Virus record (IMG/VR): IMGVR_UViG_3300037467_001237
Coordinates: 6,370 to 70,369 of that record
Reading direction: 5' to 3' (one strand)
Origin: a virus
Lineage: Duplodnaviria; Caudoviricetes
Length of the DNA: 64,000 nt
In this document: positions 4,119 to 54,598 of the stretch, piece after piece
How positions within the stretch are numbered: the stretch's first letter is position 1
Layout: each line of letters begins with the position of its first letter
The notes under the pieces: model-generated
Told to the model about the DNA's origin: nothing
Databases searched by the model: none
Seen by the model: the letters and a program-made list of their open reading frames with translations, nothing else
Position numbers and translations under genes: made by a program

Positions 4119-4592
4119 GGCGGTCTCGGGGGGAGAAGATCGACCAGAGGCGCGGACTCTTACTGTCCGTCAGATGTGTCGTTCCGGCGTGGTCGATGGG
4201 GTTGATGCCGGAGTGGATCCCACGCCGCGCCTGTCAGAGTCCGCGTCTGTCAGACGAGCGAGGCCGCCGCAGCGGGTCCGGCATCAAACTGGGAATTTCG
4301 TGGGGTCGTGCAGCCATAGCGCTGCAATCTGGCTGAGTCGCTAGGCCCGATCGGGCCGCAAACCCAACGCTGCACCTGTAGGCTTTGTTTCGCCCTTCAC
4401 ACTGGTGCAGTCGGCCGCTTACAAGGCGACCGTATGCAGCAAGTATATGCACGCTGCCGAGCATGTCAATAGGGCTGTTGTTAAGAAATTCTTCTCAATT
4501 CAGCAAATATGTTAAATAAAACTAAGGGTATATACACGCATATGGGCGCGACAATGCTTGCACGATAGCCTGATCCGGCTGCCGCGCAAGCG

Positions 4593-5946: not shown

Positions 5947-7065
5947 GTGTCCGTCCGCAGCTATAAATTCAGGCTTAGGCCCAGCAGCGCGCAAGCGGCG
6001 TTGCTTGACGATATGCTTCGCGACATGTGCGGGCTCTACAATGCCTGCCTTCAGCAGCGCATCGAAGCCTACCGACGCCGCGGCCTAAGCTTGCGCTACG
6101 GGCATCAGGCCGGCGAGTTGAAGGCGTGCCGCGGCGCCGATCCGAACGGGCTCGGGCGCTGGTCGTTCTCCGCCTTGCAACAGGTGCTCCGACGACTCGA
6201 CCAGACCTATGCTGCCTTCTTCAAACGCGGGCACGGCTTCCCGCGGTTCCGGGCTTCGGCCCGGTTTCACAGCGCCACGTTCCGGGTCGGCGACGGCCTG
6301 ACGATCAAGCGGGATCGCCGCATCGGCATCGTCGGCGTGCCCGGCGGGATCAAGATCGTCTGGCACCGCGACCTGCCGCCGGACGCCAATCTCGGCACCG
6401 CGATCCTCACGCGTCAGCAGGGCAAGTGGTACGTCGTGTTCTCCGTCGATGCGGAGTTCTCCGAAGCTTGTGGGACCGGCACGGTCGGGATCGACCTGGG
6501 GCTCACCAGCCTGATCGCCACGAGCGACGGCGAGACCGTCGAAGCTCCGCGCCATGCCCGCACGGCACACAAGGCGCAACGGCGAAAACAACGGGCGCTT
6601 GCTCGTTGCAAACGCGGGTCGAAGCGCCGCCTGAAAGCCAAGGCGCGGCTCGCTGCCGGCTCCGCCAAGATCGCCCGGCAGCGGCGCGATCACCTTCACA
6701 AGCTCTCGCGGTCCCTGGTGTCGCGTTACCAGGGCATCGCGTTCGAAGATCTCAACCTGGCCGGGCTCAGGCGCGGGATGCTCGCCCGGTCCGTTCACGA
6801 CGCCGCGTGGTCTCTCCTCGTCCAACTCACGACGTATAAGGCTGCAAGCGCCGATGCGTCCGTTGTGCTGGTCGATCCGCGCGGGACCTCCCAGACCTGC
6901 CCCGCATGCGGGACGATCAAGGCCAAGACGCTCCGAACCCGAACCCACGCCTGCGAATGCGGGACGGTTCTGGACCGGGACGTGGCGGCCGCGATGGTTG
7001 TGCATCAGCGGGCTTTCGGGCCGGGACACGGCCCTCGGGACACAAGCCAGCGGGTTGCCGCATAG
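5947..7065 (+). CDS. tnpB: RNA-guided endonuclease TnpB (IS200/IS605 family, solo)
   Basis: RSYKFRLRP N-terminus; RuvC residues in VGIDLG, IAFEDL, DRDVAAA; zinc finger CPACG...CECG. Confidence 0.95.
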   Translation: MSVRSYKFRLRPSSAQAALLDDMLRDMCGLYNACLQQRIEAYRRRGLSLRYGHQAGELKACRGADPNGLGRWSFSALQQVLRRLDQTYAAFFKRGHGFPRFRASARFHSATFRVGDGLTIKRDRRIGIVGVPGGIKIVWHRDLPPDANLGTAILTRQQGKWYVVFSVDAEFSEACGTGTVGIDLGLTSLIATSDGETVEAPRHARTAHKAQRRKQRALARCKRGSKRRLKAKARLAAGSAKIARQRRDHLHKLSRSLVSRYQGIAFEDLNLAGLRRGMLARSVHDAAWSLLVQLTTYKAASADASVVLVDPRGTSQTCPACGTIKAKTLRTRTHACECGTVLDRDVAAAMVVHQRAFGPGHGPRDTSQRVAA

Positions 7066-17905: not shown

Positions 17906-18469
17906 ATGAAAATCGTTGAAGTGGATCTGGTCTCGACCGCCCCGTATTCGCAGTCGTACAAGCACGACACTCCGAAGAAGGACAAGGAGAGCGCCGACGA
18001 CCACGAGAAGCGCACTTGGCGGGAGAAATGCACGACTGACGCCGAAGGGAATATTCAGATCCCGGCCATGGCATTCAAGCAGGCGCTCGACAGCGTCGCG
18101 AAGCGCATGGGCATCCAGGTCCCCGGCCGCGGCAAGAACACCTACACCAAGCACTTCCTCGGCGGCGTGATCTGCGAGTCCGATGTGGCGATCGGCTATC
18201 ACAAGGACACGGTCCCAAGCATCACGATCAGCGCCAACTCTGACGGCGTCCGCGGATCGGGCAAGCGCGTATCGCGCACCTTTCCGCAGGTCCCGGAGTG
18301 GAAGGGAACCGCTCGGTTCGTCATCCTCGACGACACGGTCACGACTGAGGTCTTTGAGAAGCATCTCGTCGAGGCCGGTCGCTTCATCGGCATCGGCCGC
18401 TTCCGCCCCGAGAAGGGCGGCCTCAATGGGCGCTTCCGTCCGACCGCGTTCCGCTGGTCGGACATCTAA
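17906..18469 (+). CDS. RAMP/Cas7-like protein (Vipr-like, locus 1)
   Basis: N-terminal strand VDLVSTAPY, IPAMAFKQAL (cf. RAMP IPGSSLKGAL), Gly-rich loop AGRFIGIGRFRPEKGGLNGRF; embedded between arrays. Confidence 0.75.
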   Translation: MKIVEVDLVSTAPYSQSYKHDTPKKDKESADDHEKRTWREKCTTDAEGNIQIPAMAFKQALDSVAKRMGIQVPGRGKNTYTKHFLGGVICESDVAIGYHKDTVPSITISANSDGVRGSGKRVSRTFPQVPEWKGTARFVILDDTVTTEVFEKHLVEAGRFIGIGRFRPEKGGLNGRFRPTAFRWSDI

Positions 18470-49848: not shown

Positions 49849-50037
49849 ATGAGCGCCGTCGTTCTGGTGGTATTCGCAGTATTCTTCATCGTTGCGATGC
49901 TAAGAATACTGGGCATGCCGGTCTACGCGGCGCGAGAAATTCGCGGCGACCGTCCAACCCTGGGCTGGGCGATGATCTGGGTTTGGCTTTTTATACTCTG
50001 GATCATCTGGGACGTGGGCAGCAGCTTCATGCACTAG
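49849..50037 (+). CDS. Small two-TM moron protein
   Basis: Antisense to the tail operon; two hydrophobic segments. Confidence 0.6.
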   Translation: MSAVVLVVFAVFFIVAMLRILGMPVYAAREIRGDRPTLGWAMIWVWLFILWIIWDVGSSFMH

Positions 50038-50495
50038 CCGAGCCCGGCCAGGTGCCGGTTGACCCCCGTGCCGATGATGTGGACGACGTCGTGCGCCCTT
50101 CGCGCGCCAGCCGCCCCCATGACGGGGCGCGCTGGCATGTTCGCGGTCCCCAGTTCAAACCACTCCGCGCGCCTGTCGTCTGAGCCGATCGCGGCGTGGT
50201 TGTGGTCGATGACCTTGTGCTCGATGCCGTCCCGGAACGTTCCATCGCGCAACAGCGGATTGTCGGGCGGCGCGTAGCCGAGTTCGATCTTGCCGGGGAA
50301 TCCTTTGAAGCCGTTCAGCGTCGTTTCCGCGAGTGGCTCCCACCCGGCGTCATATGTGCCGATCAACCCGCGCGCGTCCCGTTCGACGAGGGCGGCGGCC
50401 TTTTCCAGGGCGCGATGCTGCGCCTCGGGGAGCGTTGCGATCACCGCGTTCATGTGCGCGACGAAAGACGAGATCGAGTTGAACGTGCGCGCCAT
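50034..50495 (-). CDS. HK97 gp10-like tail component
   Basis: LLRDGTFRDGI, WFELGTANMPARPVM. Confidence 0.7.
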   Translation of the reverse strand: MARTFNSISSFVAHMNAVIATLPEAQHRALEKAAALVERDARGLIGTYDAGWEPLAETTLNGFKGFPGKIELGYAPPDNPLLRDGTFRDGIEHKVIDHNHAAIGSDDRRAEWFELGTANMPARPVMGAAGARRAHDVVHIIGTGVNRHLAGLG

Positions 50496-50501
50496 CGAGC
50501 C

Positions 50502-50663
50502 CTACTTCAGATAGCTGTTAGCCCTCAGATGCTCGACCAGCAGCAACTCGACCAACGAGGTCAGCGACCGACGCTGCTCCGCGGCTGCGCGCTCGGCAGC
50601 CTCTTTGATCGCCGGCTCGATCCTGAGATTGAGCGTCGCCGTCTTTTTGCGCTGCTCCGCCAT
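50502..50663 (-). CDS. Arc-like ribbon-helix-helix regulator (53 aa)
   Basis: Manual translation MAEQRKKTATLNLRIEPAIKEAAERAAAEQRRSLTSLVELLL. Confidence 0.75.
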   Translation of the reverse strand: MAEQRKKTATLNLRIEPAIKEAAERAAAEQRRSLTSLVELLLVEHLRANSYLK

Positions 50664-50681
50664 TAATGTACCGCCACTGGC

Positions 50682-50709
50682 TTGACACGCTCTTTCGGCA
50701 GTGTATCGT
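50682..50709 (+). promoter_or_regulatory. Putative promoter of the HNH-Vipr-like cassette
   Basis: TTGACA-N16-TATCGT. Confidence 0.5.
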
Positions 50710-50741
50710 GAGTGGCGTTACAAAGCAACGGTTCGGAAGCG

Positions 50742-51170
50742 GTGACCTACGAGGAGTACATCGGATCATCGGTCTGGGCCGCCCTGCGCCAACTAGCGCT
50801 GGAGCGCGACAGCTTCCGCTGCCGAGGCTGCGATGCCGCAGACAACTTAGAGGTTCACCACCGTCGCTACGGCGATCCTCTTGGAACAGAGACAGTGGAA
50901 GATCTGACCACGCTCTGCGTCGAGTGCCACAGAGCGATCACAACCATCATTCGTCGACGTAGATACGAGAAGCAGACTCACGTCGTCGCCACAGCAACAA
51001 GGCTTACGCCAAGCAGAGCGGAGATTGTCCGTGTCCTACCAGCGCTTGAAGTTCAAAATTTCGTCCGCCGCACCCCTGGTCATGCACAACGGCCGGCTAG
51101 CGAACCCGCTAGATCCAATGTCGAAGGCGCTCAAGCGCGTGTCGAGCAAGCGCGCGAAGACGGATGCTGA
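50742..51170 (+). CDS. HNH endonuclease overlapping the Vipr-like gene
   Basis: ERDSFRCRGC, LEVHH, LTTLCVECH. Confidence 0.75.
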   Translation: MTYEEYIGSSVWAALRQLALERDSFRCRGCDAADNLEVHHRRYGDPLGTETVEDLTTLCVECHRAITTIIRRRRYEKQTHVVATATRLTPSRAEIVRVLPALEVQNFVRRTPGHAQRPASEPARSNVEGAQARVEQAREDGC

Positions 51171-51600
51171 CTTCGCCGAGATGGCTCGGATTGAGTTCTT
51201 GGGCGGCCTCTACGTCAGCGAGGACGGCCCATGCATCCCCGGTGAGTTGGTCGAGGCCGCGCTTGTTGCCGCCGCCAAGAAGAGCAAGCGTGGCGTTCAG
51301 GCCAAGATCGGACTCATCTCTGATGGCAACCACAAGCTCGACTACGATGGCCCCAGGGCGCCGGACGAGCTATGGCAAGATGAGAAGTTTCGGCTCGTCG
51401 CTGGCGTCAAAGTAGGCCAAGCGCGGGTCATGAGAACGCGACCGATCTTCCGAGATTGGTCCTGTGAGATCTTCGTCGACTTCTTGCCCGATCAGTTGAA
51501 TCGGTCAGAGGTCGCGGAGATGGTTCGGACTGCGGGGGCTATCGTTGGTATCGGCGATTGGCGTCCGAAGTTCGGGCGGTTCGCAGCAGAGATGCTGTGA
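51031..51600 (+). CDS. RAMP/Cas7-like protein (Vipr-like, locus 2)
   Basis: APLVMHN, CIPGELVEAAL, RVMRTRPIFRDW, Gly-rich loop AGAIVGIGDWRPKFGRF; GGAG RBS 7 nt before GTG; arrays begin 4 nt after the stop. Confidence 0.8.
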   Translation: MSYQRLKFKISSAAPLVMHNGRLANPLDPMSKALKRVSSKRAKTDADFAEMARIEFLGGLYVSEDGPCIPGELVEAALVAAAKKSKRGVQAKIGLISDGNHKLDYDGPRAPDELWQDEKFRLVAGVKVGQARVMRTRPIFRDWSCEIFVDFLPDQLNRSEVAEMVRTAGAIVGIGDWRPKFGRFAAEML

Positions 51601-51604
51601 ATTT

Positions 51605-51852
51605 GGTGCCGTTCGGCGTGGCTCGGCAAGGCAGGGTGGGCCATGGCGAGGCAGGTCAGGGCGGGGTCCGACAAGGGAGATCGAGGAGGCGCTGCGGTGC
51701 CTTCTCGATCCGCCGATCACTGTGAACTCCCATCGCCATAAGGCGATCGGCGTCCACAGTGTGGGCGATTAGGGCATGACGTGGTCAGTCAGGGCATGTC
51801 GGGCCGAGGCGAGTTTGGCCGAGGCGCGGTGTGGCAAGGCGAGGCAAGGGCC
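51605..51852 (+). ncRNA. GGY-NN pentamer guide arrays (51605-51679, 15 units; 51773-51852, 16 units) with a structured spacer
   Basis: In-phase units such as ggcgt ggctc ggcaa ggcag ggtgg; hairpin/pseudoknot 51679-51761. Confidence 0.85.
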
Positions 51853-51860
51853 TTCGGGCG

Positions 51861-51891
51861 GGGCGGGTCGTTTCTGCGGCCCGTCCTTATT
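51861..51891 (+). terminator. Terminator-like hairpin ending the array transcript
   Basis: GGGCGGGTCG-tttctg-CGGCCCGTCC followed by TTATT. Confidence 0.6.
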
Positions 51892-52428
51892 GCTCGCGCG
51901 CCTGCCAAGTCCAGGAGTTGAAATTGAATTTCGCCTCGCCCTTCATCTCGACTGCGACGATATACATCGCGGTTCGCATGCGATCGGACAAGGTCTCGAC
52001 GACGGACCATGGCACACCGGCCGCGCTCAATGTCATCATCTCGACGAGGCCGGGCGCCTGTGTTAGTTTTTTATTGCTTCCCGCTCGTCTTCGTATTCAA
52101 CCGGGTTAAGCGAGCGCAGTCCCTCGTTGATCGAGTCCCAGTCGTCGCCGACGCGCTGGACGATCGCCATGATCTGGGTCTTGGTCGAGCGCTTCAGGTC
52201 GGTGTCGCCGTCGATCGCTTTGACCGAGTACGCGACCAGCGCATAGGTCAGGAACGGAATGTTCTGGCTCGCCTCGGGACCGATCGCCTCGAACACGAGC
52301 ATGCGGTCGATCGGGCTGAGCCGCTTGATCTTGTAGGTCTTGCCGGTGGGGCCGACGACATCGACGGTGCCGGGCGCGGCGGACTTAACCTCGGCCGCAT
52401 CGGCGGCGTGGACGGTGACCTTAGCCAT
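51887..52428 (-). CDS. Tail assembly chaperone G (52063-52428) and -1 frameshift product GT (to 51887)
   Basis: Slippery A AAA AAC at 52072-52066 before TAA; the -1 frame runs LTQAPGLVEMMTLSAAG...WTWQAREQ. Confidence 0.8.
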
Positions 52429-52508
52429 CTGATTCCTAGGGGTTGAAGCGCTTCAGCGCGGGAAAGCGCGGGGCCGCCGCGCCTCATGCTCGGCGGCCCC
52501 GGAAAAGA

Positions 52509-52937
52509 TCACTGGATCGGGATGCGGCGGGAGGCTTCCCAATCGAGCTTCGGCGTGACGTTGGCGTCTTTCCGCCAGTTGCCGGCGTCGGAGCAGGAGA
52601 ACACCACGTTGGTGTAGCGCCACTGCGAGATCGAGCCGTCGACCTCCTGGATGGTCTCTGTGATCGAGCCGTACACGAAGGTGTTGCCGTTGTAGTAGGC
52701 CGCCTCGTAGGCATTGATCAGGTCGTCGAGCGCGCGGTTGGCGCGGTCGATGGAGACCGACCCAGCCCAGCCGTCCGGGACGTTGAAGTACCGGGTGACG
52801 CCGTCGATGGCCGACGACTTCAACTTCGAGACCTGTTGGTGCGAAGTGAAGTCGGTGAGGATGGACAGGTTGATGATGCCGTTCGGCCCGGCAACGTCGA
52901 TGGATACGTCGCGGCCGGTATTAAAGGGTCCAGGCAT
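52509..52937 (-). CDS. Tail tube protein
   Basis: 142 aa directly after the sheath. Confidence 0.8.
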   Translation of the reverse strand: MPGPFNTGRDVSIDVAGPNGIINLSILTDFTSHQQVSKLKSSAIDGVTRYFNVPDGWAGSVSIDRANRALDDLINAYEAAYYNGNTFVYGSITETIQEVDGSISQWRYTNVVFSCSDAGNWRKDANVTPKLDWEASRRIPIQ

Positions 52938-52992
52938 AGATGCGCCTCACAATGCAGGGGAGAGATCAGGGTTCAGGACTGGGCCGGTGGGC

Positions 52993-54531
52993 TTAGAAGC
53001 TCACCGACGTGGTCGTGCGGTCGATGGAGACCGTCTGGCCCCCCTGCATGTTGACGAGGAAGAACTCGACGACGCTCTGGTAGGTGACCTGAATGTCGGC
53101 CTGCTCGTAGCCGAGGCTGACCCGCGAGAACGGGTTGTTGTTGGCGTCGAGCTGGACCTTCCAGGCGTTCGGGCCGTTGATGTCGCCGATGTAGCCTTGG
53201 CTCTGAAGGTTCGCGAAGAACGAGTCGAGCGTGACCTTGGCCCGGCGCTGCTGGCTCGCGGTCTGGAGCGTGCCGACATACTTGCCGATGCCCGCCGCGA
53301 TCGTGAACGCGATGAAGTTCGTCATTCTGGTGTAGTTGTCACCATGAATGGCGGCGTTCGACGAGGTGTTGCGGCCGTTGCGGCAGCCGAAGTACGAACC
53401 GCCCGGCACCGGGTTGCAGACCACGTCGATGCCGGCCTGGGCGAGCACCTGGAGTTCCGCGTTAGTGTAGGGCACGCCCGTGTAGGACTTCTGGGTGCCG
53501 ACGATCCCATAGAGCTGCTTGTTGAGCGTGCTCTGGTTCGGGGCGAGGTTGCCGAGGAGGCCGGCGACGAATGCCTGCGACGGCACGAGCCGGGTCTGGC
53601 CGTTGACGCTGTCGAGGAAGTACACGTAGTCGCCCAACATGAGCTTGAGCGCGTAGCTGTCGACGCCGGCCGTGGACTTCACGGAGACGGCGTTCGTGAT
53701 CGTGTCGCCCGACGGGCCGACCGCGACCATGTACATGCCCTCGCCGATGCCGAACGCGATCTGGGTCGCCCAGGTGGTCGAGTCCGACACGTCGGTGAGC
53801 ATGGCGACAGAGGCGCCGGACCCGCGCAGCGCGTACATGCCGGTCCGCGGCAGGCTGTCGACGCCGACCATCACCGAGGAGGTGATCGTGGTCACGCCGT
53901 CGGTGCCGCCGGTCAGGGTGTAGCTGGCGGTGGTCGGGGCGGTCGTGCCGGCGCCGGCCGTGGCGACCACGAGGTTCGACGGGCCGCGCAGGCCGGTGAG
54001 GCCGTTGTTGATCGCGCTGGCGATGTTCACCCACAGGGCGTTGCCGGTGCCGGTGATGTTGTCGAACACCTCGCCGACCTGGCCGGGGCGCGAGACCACG
54101 ACGCGGTAGCTACTGGCGGCCGAGCCCGGCCCGATCGACACCACGTCGCTGTTGGCGAGCGAGCCGGTGTATTTGGAGGTGATGGTCAGGCAGGTCGTCT
54201 GGATCGAAACAGTCGCGGCGACGTCGGTGCCGTCCGTCACGCGGACGAACTTCACGACCGGCTGCGTGCCCTGCTGGAAGATATTGAACACCGCGGTAGC
54301 GCCGTCATAGAGGCGCGCCTTCATCGGGCCGTAGGCCGCGGCGTGGGCAGCGTAGCTGCCGATGATGCCCGGAGAGCCGCCGACCTGACCCCACTGGGCG
54401 GTGCCGACAACGCCGATGACGTTGGTCGCGACGCCGTTGATCAGCAGTTGAGGCTGGACAATACTTACATATACATCGCTAACCTGGAGCGCGGCAGTGT
54501 TGATCTGCCCGTACTGGACAACCTGTCCCAT
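52993..54531 (-). CDS. Contractile tail sheath protein
   Basis: IGVVGTAQWG, LTGGTDG, ELQVLAQAGIDVV, RMTNFI. Confidence 0.9.
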   Translation of the reverse strand: MGQVVQYGQINTAALQVSDVYVSIVQPQLLINGVATNVIGVVGTAQWGQVGGSPGIIGSYAAHAAAYGPMKARLYDGATAVFNIFQQGTQPVVKFVRVTDGTDVAATVSIQTTCLTITSKYTGSLANSDVVSIGPGSAASSYRVVVSRPGQVGEVFDNITGTGNALWVNIASAINNGLTGLRGPSNLVVATAGAGTTAPTTASYTLTGGTDGVTTITSSVMVGVDSLPRTGMYALRGSGASVAMLTDVSDSTTWATQIAFGIGEGMYMVAVGPSGDTITNAVSVKSTAGVDSYALKLMLGDYVYFLDSVNGQTRLVPSQAFVAGLLGNLAPNQSTLNKQLYGIVGTQKSYTGVPYTNAELQVLAQAGIDVVCNPVPGGSYFGCRNGRNTSSNAAIHGDNYTRMTNFIAFTIAAGIGKYVGTLQTASQQRRAKVTLDSFFANLQSQGYIGDINGPNAWKVQLDANNNPFSRVSLGYEQADIQVTYQSVVEFFLVNMQGGQTVSIDRTTTSVSF

Positions 54532-54598
54532 GTTTGATCCTGGATATTGGAGGAATGGCGCGCGCGAGCCATTCCTCCATCCAGGAGGGGCCGCGACG

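Follow-up and report, generated by a model that had tools for sequence, protein, structure and literature searches.

Is the gene for a small RAMP-like protein that lies, followed by phased pentanucleotides, in the tail operon of a tailed phage part of an RNA-guided system, and if so, what does the system act on? The question is raised by IMG/VR virus record IMGVR_UViG_3300037467_001237 (70,369 bp, rated complete by CheckV), of which bases 6370–70369 were analysed; this whole stretch of 64,000 nucleotides (65% G+C) is called the window, and all coordinates refer to it unless a locus is named. A first-pass annotation, made from the letters of the window, had proposed that a complete VIPR-like locus is present at 51031–51891. 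VIPR (Viral Interference Programmable Repeat) systems consist of a RAMP protein, Vipr, and guide RNAs (vrRNAs) with 9–16 YNNGG repeats and a structured 3′ tail; NN pairs recognise DNA with one target base skipped, competing phages are targeted, and seven types (I–VII) with accessory vap genes have been described (bioRxiv 10.64898/2026.04.26.720920). What the annotation stated about such systems, a RAMP protein paired with GGY/NN guides and directed against competing phages, agrees with that preprint.

The analysis presented below leaves little doubt that the locus is a VIPR system. The cassette, a moron of a 70-kb tailed phage, looks functional and includes a nuclease-type accessory gene. Its second guide probably directs Vipr to the tail-chaperone-like gene of related phages, where the tail operon would be blocked and perhaps cut, the phage's own allele escaping. 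VIPR itself was published in 2026; new here are the exact insertion borders, a conserved overlap between an HNH gene and vipr, a natural target that lies, in sister phages, in the gene next to the insertion site, and a possible homing-like role. For comparison, we used 20 homologous vipr loci (given L-numbers) and two cassette-free phages, G150 and G151 (L022 and L023). The closest Vipr relatives (~80% identity) are found in Methylobacterium and Microvirga, a host range that points to a phage of alphaproteobacteria.

A Homologue of SUSP1 Vipr

51031–51600, plus strand: vipr gene (product P0001, 189 aa), GTG start; assigned by homology to SUSP1 Vipr, by phrog_4652, and by AlphaFold2 and Foldseek

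The RAMP-type assignment in the first-pass annotation was based on an IPGxxxxAAL segment and a C-terminal glycine-rich loop in a 189-aa open reading frame (ORF). Both are present: residues 69–78 of P0001 read IPGELVEAAL, and the loop at the C-terminus is GAIVGIGDWRPKFGRF. When P0001 was compared with the sequences of solved structures using phmmer, the sole match was SUSP1 Vipr (36pp_D; E = 1.8e-35, 125.6 bits), aligned over residues 6–188 of 189. The comparison with Vipr that the annotation had suggested thus returned a full-length homologue of a structurally solved protein. In PHROGs, P0001 matches phrog_4652 (2.2e-55), a family listed as “unknown function”, while Pfam, PADLOC, and NCBIfam contain no family for Vipr. 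The Vipr family comprises 664 matches at E ≤ 0.001, similar in length to P0001.

In SUSP1 Vipr, the first G of the guide unit (G1) is contacted by H17 and D177, the second (G2) by R138 and W178, the pyrimidine Y3 is held by E71, M72, R179, and C173, and the skipped target base by K33 (bioRxiv 10.64898/2026.04.26.720927). In the phmmer alignment, seven of these residues (H17, K33, E71, R138, D177, W178, and R179) were identical in P0001, where they correspond, in this order, to H19, K35, E72, R137, D176, W177, and R178. SUSP1 M72 is replaced by Leu, and C173 by Val.

An AlphaFold2 model of P0001, computed with 24 homologues, has a predicted local distance difference test (pLDDT) score of 93.4 and contains a β-hairpin at residues 121–140 and the G-loop GIGDWRPKFG. 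The top Foldseek matches of the model, in a PDB library older than the Vipr entries, were Csm3/Cas7 subunits from type III-A Csm and type VII (Cas14) effector complexes (probability 1.0, TM ~0.5). As modelled, P0001 is a RAMP fold with an RRM core, a thumb, and a glycine-rich loop; the annotation had named the lack of an RRM/RAMP fold as what would refute it, which is not what the model shows, and had proposed the comparison with Cas7/Csm3 that gave the best matches. A “Cas7-ancestral” origin of Vipr is the claim of the VIPR preprint (10.64898/2026.04.26.720920). The resemblance to Cas7/Csm3 of type III CRISPR-Cas extends to the RRM core, the thumb hairpin, and the glycine-rich loop, and Csm3/Cas7 is the best structural match; unlike in these proteins, to which identity is 10–14%, the periodicity here is 5 nt rather than 6 nt, and pairing is gapped. 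The 1.4-kb insert that carries vipr (see below) contains no CRISPR array, other cas genes, or adaptation module; its content is a ribbon-helix-helix (RHH) gene, an HNH gene, vipr, and the pentamer tracts. Identity as a type III CRISPR-Cas locus was therefore rejected: there is no repeat-spacer array and there are no cas genes in the insert, and the similarity to Csm3 is structural only.

A second ORF of the window, at 17906–18469 on the plus strand (187 aa), resembles the part of P0001 from the thumb to the G-loop (BLASTP, 31% identity over 58 aa, pairwise E = 2e-5). It gave no match to the solved Vipr, and its G-loop reads GIGRFRPEKG as opposed to GIGDWRPKFG, with both GG-reading residues changed. 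By its sequence, this ORF may belong to a second, divergent VIPR-like system of the same phage.

Two Guide Arrays

51602–51679, plus strand: vrRNA1 repeat tract, 15 YNNGG units (51602–51676) followed by one or two degenerate units; phasing, score 33 of 36
51679–51710, plus strand: GC-rich hairpin of 14 bp, the 3′ tail of vrRNA1; folding
51711–51767, plus strand: second inter-guide hairpin, common to the window and locus L003 (6665–6706)
51770–51849, plus strand: vrRNA2 repeat tract, 16 YNNGG units; phasing, score 32 of 36
51850–51891, plus strand: terminator-like 3′ end of vrRNA2, with a small UUCG hairpin, a 12-bp hairpin (51860–51887), and UUAUU

Phasing bears out the 15 and 16 pentamers that the annotation had described, the first GGY being located 4 nt past the vipr stop codon. 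To evaluate chance occurrence, Y..GG was scored over 12 in-phase units (maximum 36) on both strands of the 64-kb window and in 30 first-order Markov simulations. Scores of at least 30 were reached at only two places, which are the two tracts (33 and 32); the maximum was 28 on the minus strand and 28 in the simulations. Since the arrays exceed the simulations and are the sole such tracts in 64 kb, the observation is real and not due to chance. The units are too degenerate for Tandem Repeats Finder, which detected no array (degenerate units include TGCCG, TGGGC, CAGGT, TCCGA, CATGA, and TCAGT). The NN pairs of vrRNA1 are (TT) GC TC GT TC AA AG GG AT GA AG AG GG CC AA (AG), in agreement with the list given for this tract in the annotation, and those of vrRNA2 are AG AT GT CA AG AT GG GA GA TG GA GC GT AA GA AA.

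The spacer between the tracts had been described as structured, and indeed it folds (51679–51767) into two adjoining hairpins with an energy of −61 kcal/mol (z = −7.9). An equivalent of the first, GC-rich hairpin, different in sequence, is found 3′ of the arrays in L003, L004, L006, L016, and L018; in these relatives, the structure is kept and the sequence is not, and hairpin sequences also differ between guides. The inner stem of the second hairpin is ATCGCC/GGCGAT in the window and ATCGCG/CGCGAT in L003, a difference of one compensatory pair. This element could act as a signal for processing or belong to the tail of vrRNA1. A hammerhead or another known family was ruled out by an Rfam search of 50400–52200, which produced no match at E ≤ 1. 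The terminator proposed after tract 2 corresponds to the 12-bp hairpin followed by UUAUU; with fewer than five T residues, it escaped a simple terminator scan of 50400–52200.

The arrangement is general. YNNGG arrays on the same strand adjoin vipr in 18 of the 20 homologous loci, with almost none on the opposite strand. Of 624 units, 91% have a pyrimidine at position 1, and G occurs in 86% at position 4 and in 80% at position 5; NN positions carry 0.00–0.04 bits of information versus 0.7–1.2 bits for Y, G, and G. Loci with Vipr proteins that share 80% identity have wholly different guides. In L016 (6572–6716), an in-phase array runs without interruption through 29 units, and in L008 (5510–5694 and 6573–6752) such arrays have 36–37 units; they exceed the 9–16 units typical of SUSP1 and agree with a remark on “up to 30 repeats” (10.64898/2026.04.26.720927).

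Guide 2 Matches a Tail-Chaperone-Like Gene

52121–52167, minus strand: near-cognate site of vrRNA2 in its own genome, within the tail-chaperone-like gene (52063–52428, minus strand), aa 88–103, AIVQRVGDDWDSINEG

Targets were sought with the published rule, in which each GGY corresponds to one wildcard base; both strands were searched, and results were compared with shuffles of the unit order. In the 70-kb genome, the best match of guide 2 is a site in the chaperone gene at which 24 of 32 NN bases agree, compared to a maximum of 22 in 100 shuffles. The match is to the sense strand of the gene, and all 15 skipped bases fall at codon position 3. With skip lengths of 0 and 2, no match rose above background, and with a skip of 3, only the arrays themselves were recovered. 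An origin of tract 2 as a duplicated segment of the chaperone gene was considered and rejected, as copying cannot yield a 5-nt register from a 3-nt register.

Internal mismatches at the own site (units 5, 6, 12, and 13) would be conservative at the protein level. We therefore predicted that a homologue with Ile, Ala-Val, and so on at these positions should fit guide 2 better, and G151 carries exactly that sequence (AIVKRIGDDWDAVNDG). In the 71-kb genome of G151, guide 2 matches this site at 26 of 32 NN bases (81%), and at 26 of 28 in units 2–15; the shuffle maximum was 19–23. Internal mismatches in G151 are confined to units 4 and 5. The same chaperone site is the genome-wide best match of guide 2 in all three phages (own genome, 24/32; G150, 23/32; G151, 26/32); its coordinates are 4262–4308 in both L022 (G150) and L023 (G151).

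The VIPR preprint applies a natural-target criterion of 80% and reports no self-targets among its systems (10.64898/2026.04.26.720920). The value for G151 exceeds that criterion, and the wobble phasing is as the paper reports; the own site stands at 75% over 16 units and at 86% over the 14 internal units, against a self-target limit of 80%. By sequence matching, a natural target of guide 2 is identifiable in the chaperone gene of a cassette-free relative. The chaperone family itself is rare, with four proteins among 5.8 billion and one distant metagenome locus.

We also scanned 34 arrays from 18 loci against 6 kb of their own flanks on each side, using 12-unit windows and 510 shuffles. Shuffled arrays reached at least 19 of 24 in 0.2% of cases and never 20. 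Three of the 34 arrays scored 19–20: guide 2 of the window, array 2 of L003 (7867–7901, minus strand, 3′ end of the tape-measure gene), and array 1 of L011 (9551–9591, plus strand, an unannotated ORF of 331 aa). All three near-matches are to the sense strand and have the skips at codon position 3. For L003, searches with the exact guide pattern and for homologues of the tape-measure C-terminus returned nothing, so no better-matching allele was obtained.

A further observation concerns the ends of the arrays. The last units, CAAGG CGAGG CAAGG, are nearly identical in the window (51835–51849), L003 (6772–6786), and L016 (~6692–6706), the remaining NN pairs being unrelated. The AA and GA units find their match in the target sequence AAC GAx at the near-cognate sites of both the window and L003. 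The near-constant 3′ units could represent a semi-constant 3′ seed or a requirement resembling a protospacer-adjacent motif (PAM).

The Cassette Is an Insertion with an Overlapping HNH Gene

~50496–51886, no strand: whole insertion, 1.4 kb, absent from related phages G150 and G151
51887–52039, minus strand: chaperone extension ORF, flanking the insert
50034–50495, minus strand: next tail gene, flanking the insert
50742–51170, plus strand: HNH endonuclease gene, a candidate vap (142 aa), probable GTG start at 50742; Pfam HNH, 1.7e-5
50682–50709, plus strand: sigma-70-like promoter, TTGACA-16-TATCGT, 10 of 12 consensus positions; consensus match only

G150 (68.9 kb) and G151 (71.2 kb, with terminal repeats) are complete related phages in which no vipr was found. 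According to blastn, window positions 51899–54542 are 84% identical to both across the sheath, tube, and chaperone genes; in G150 and G151, homology is back after 7–40 bp, at window position 50503 or lower. In G151, the chaperone extension ORF ends directly against the start codon (ATG) of the gene that follows, and it is at this junction that the window has 1.4 kb. The cassette is bordered, correspondingly, by the stop codon of that ORF on one side and by the ATG of the tail gene at 50034–50495 on the other. The annotation had placed the cassette antisense to the tail genes and wedged between two of them; the borders and the two cassette-free relatives show that it is a true insertion. Its description as a complete locus made of a RAMP-like gene and arrays holds for both of these components, to which have to be added an HNH gene, running into the start of vipr, and an RHH gene in divergent orientation. 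The own site of guide 2 is 222 bp from the edge of the insert, a distance of 300 bp or less being expected for ~1% of random positions.

The HNH gene has an intact reading frame, matches Pfam HNH above the curated cutoff (1.7e-5) and PHROG HNH families down to 4e-11, and contains the motifs CxxC...HH...CxxCH. Its last 140 nt (51031–51170) extend into vipr in the +1 frame. An HNH gene is directly upstream of vipr in 13 of the 20 loci, and in 12 of the 13 there is an overlap of 134–164 nt, mostly of exactly 140 nt, with a constant relative frame. In relatives, vipr cassettes are found in unrelated genomic contexts; since other neighbours are not conserved, HNH, vipr, and the arrays constitute a mobile unit. 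The HNH stop codon falls within a conserved Vipr motif, K-T-D-A-D (gcTGAc), and the overlap encodes a 46-aa HNH tail that is either functional or merely tolerated.

HNH-domain Vap proteins are named in the legend of fig. S21 of the VIPR preprint, and the nuclease-bearing types III–V described there are enriched in cellular defence islands and target viruses (10.64898/2026.04.26.720920). Like types III–V, the cassette has a predicted nuclease accessory gene; unlike them, it is phage-borne, lies within a tail operon, and is aimed at a tail gene of a relative. In Felixounavirus HY02, which is SUSP1-like, and in Gordonia phage MakoManhole, the accessory gene is downstream of vipr and codes for a small or DNA-binding protein; in contrast, here HNH is upstream with its 140-nt overlap, and the arrays begin 4 nt past the vipr stop.

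Proposed Role of the Cassette and Alternatives

The locus shares several properties with the VIPR systems of SUSP1/Felixounavirus and of P. fulva (type II; PDB 36pp). The Vipr proteins are homologous, with 39% identity by tblastn to Felixounavirus records; all GGY-reading and skip-base residues on the seven-residue list are kept; there are 15–16 YNNGG units and a structured 3′ tail; and, as in SUSP1-type systems, the cassette is phage-borne and its target is a coding sequence of a rival phage with skips on wobble positions. By analogy with SUSP1, the operon transcript would give rise to two vrRNAs of ~100 nt, on which one Vipr protomer would bind per YNNGG unit, hiding the GGY bases and presenting the NN pairs, and the resulting filament would recognise double-stranded DNA by reading NNxNNx... 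In co-infection or superinfection, the cassette would attack related competing phages, whose tail operon would be blocked at the chaperone gene and whose bound DNA the HNH protein might also cleave. SUSP1 R-loops form 3′ to 5′. Since they grow from the 3′ end, the own-site mismatches in units 12 and 13, near the end where R-loops nucleate, may be protective and spare the phage's own copy.

Several findings weigh against this scheme. The margin between self and non-self is thin (24/28 over the internal units, or 86%, at the own site versus 26/28 in G151), and cassette-free G150 fits guide 2 worse (23/32) than the own genome does (24/32). No perfect target of guide 2 was found with the exact 14-unit pattern in IMG/VR or with a relaxed pattern in JGI metagenomes, and none at three or fewer mismatches in 146 Methylobacterium genomes. 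AA-GA-AA 3′ units recur in arrays of other loci, and the chaperone match may partly involve such semi-constant units. For guide 1, no target above the unit-order shuffles was present in the window, the own 70-kb genome, G150, or G151; none at three or fewer mismatches was present in the genomes of four relatives or in the 146 Methylobacterium genomes; and two exact sub-patterns had no match in IMG/VR. The annotation had seen no convincing target for this tract in the window, and a gapped-pattern search of related phages and Methylobacterium genomes, of the kind that it suggested, is likewise empty. In addition, the 3′ tail of SUSP1 vrRNA forms a pseudoknot versus predicted plain hairpins here, the Asn position of the HNH motif is occupied by Asp, and the sole promoter-like site in 50400–52200, that at 50682–50709, is a weak match to the consensus.

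An alternative that we consider unlikely is RNA-guided homing or marker exclusion. Here, Vipr–vrRNA2 would mark, in a relative without the cassette, the chaperone gene ~220 bp away from the empty site, HNH would cut, and repair would copy the cassette together with its resistant flank. Free-standing homing endonucleases of phages, such as those of the T4 Seg/Mob type, offer a parallel: as with them, an HNH gene that close relatives lack is inserted among conserved structural genes, the flanking gene holds a recognisable target a few hundred bp away, and the own allele is polymorphic at the target. The difference is that recognition here lies with a guide RNA that a RAMP protein reads and not with the nuclease, and the homing-like role is putative. 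Tight linkage of HNH to vipr in 13 of the 20 loci, precise intergenic insertion absent from relatives that are 84% identical, the better fit of guide 2 to the cassette-free G151 allele than to the own allele, and the unrelated contexts of the cassette in relatives, as expected of a mobile unit, are all consistent with homing, as is the location of the only above-background match of guide 2 in the 70-kb genome 222 bp from the insert edge. This last argument from proximity is, however, post hoc, and the case comes from a single phage family with one good example. Discrimination between alleles is weak (own genome, 24; G151, 26; G150, 23 of 32), with cassette-free G150 fitting worse than the own genome, and L011 has a near-match in its own flank without an HNH match. 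The activities of VIPR published so far are silencing (10.64898/2026.04.26.720920).

Another alternative is self-regulation, in which guide 2 would bind the own chaperone gene despite four internal mismatches and dampen or time the tail operon, for instance so that late genes stay silent while the phage is carried. The own site does match at 24 of 28 internal NN bases in wobble phase, far above background, and the cassette is located within the operon that it would regulate. Yet perfect agreement with the own site is what one would expect of a regulator, whereas the match over 16 units (75%) is under the 80% of the paper, which has no self-targets; moreover, guide 2 fits the G151 allele better, and its four internal mismatches with the own site fall exactly where relatives differ. 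In SUSP1, silencing was lost when NN pairing was disturbed (10.64898/2026.04.26.720920). Self-regulation is therefore improbable in our view. That the locus is a decaying or inert relic, made of genuine VIPR homologues whose expression or activity was lost, is very improbable: several units are degenerate and guide 1 is without a target, but the vipr ORF is intact with all contact residues and a high-confidence fold, the HNH frame is intact, the match of guide 2 is highly significant, and internal degeneracy is frequent in vrRNAs (10.64898/2026.04.26.720920).

Interference with related phages through guide 2 is the reading that we prefer. Beyond the SUSP1 and P. fulva clades, few natural targets of VIPR have been described, and here one guide has an identifiable tail-assembly target in sister phages, next to a nuclease gene translationally interlocked with vipr. 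The locus is a compact test case from an alphaproteobacterial phage with exact borders and two cassette-free sister phages as natural controls. Questions that become testable are the role of a nuclease accessory at a Vipr-bound site, the number and position of mismatches that protect the own genome, and whether the cassette spreads by attacking the empty site. If the homing alternative were true, the cassette would be a programmable counterpart of phage homing endonucleases and would suggest one way in which RAMP-guide modules may first have been joined to nucleases.

A Ribbon-Helix-Helix Gene in the Insert

50502–50663, minus strand: ribbon-helix-helix (Arc/HicB-like) gene, 53 aa; Pfam HicB, 1.3e-4; PHROG Arc-like repressor, 1.4e-4

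The remaining gene of the insert is divergent from the HNH–vipr operon, is oriented like the tail operon, and stops 6 nt short of the start codon (ATG) of the tail gene that follows. No RHH homologue was detected by tblastn at related vipr loci. The RHH protein is a possible regulator.

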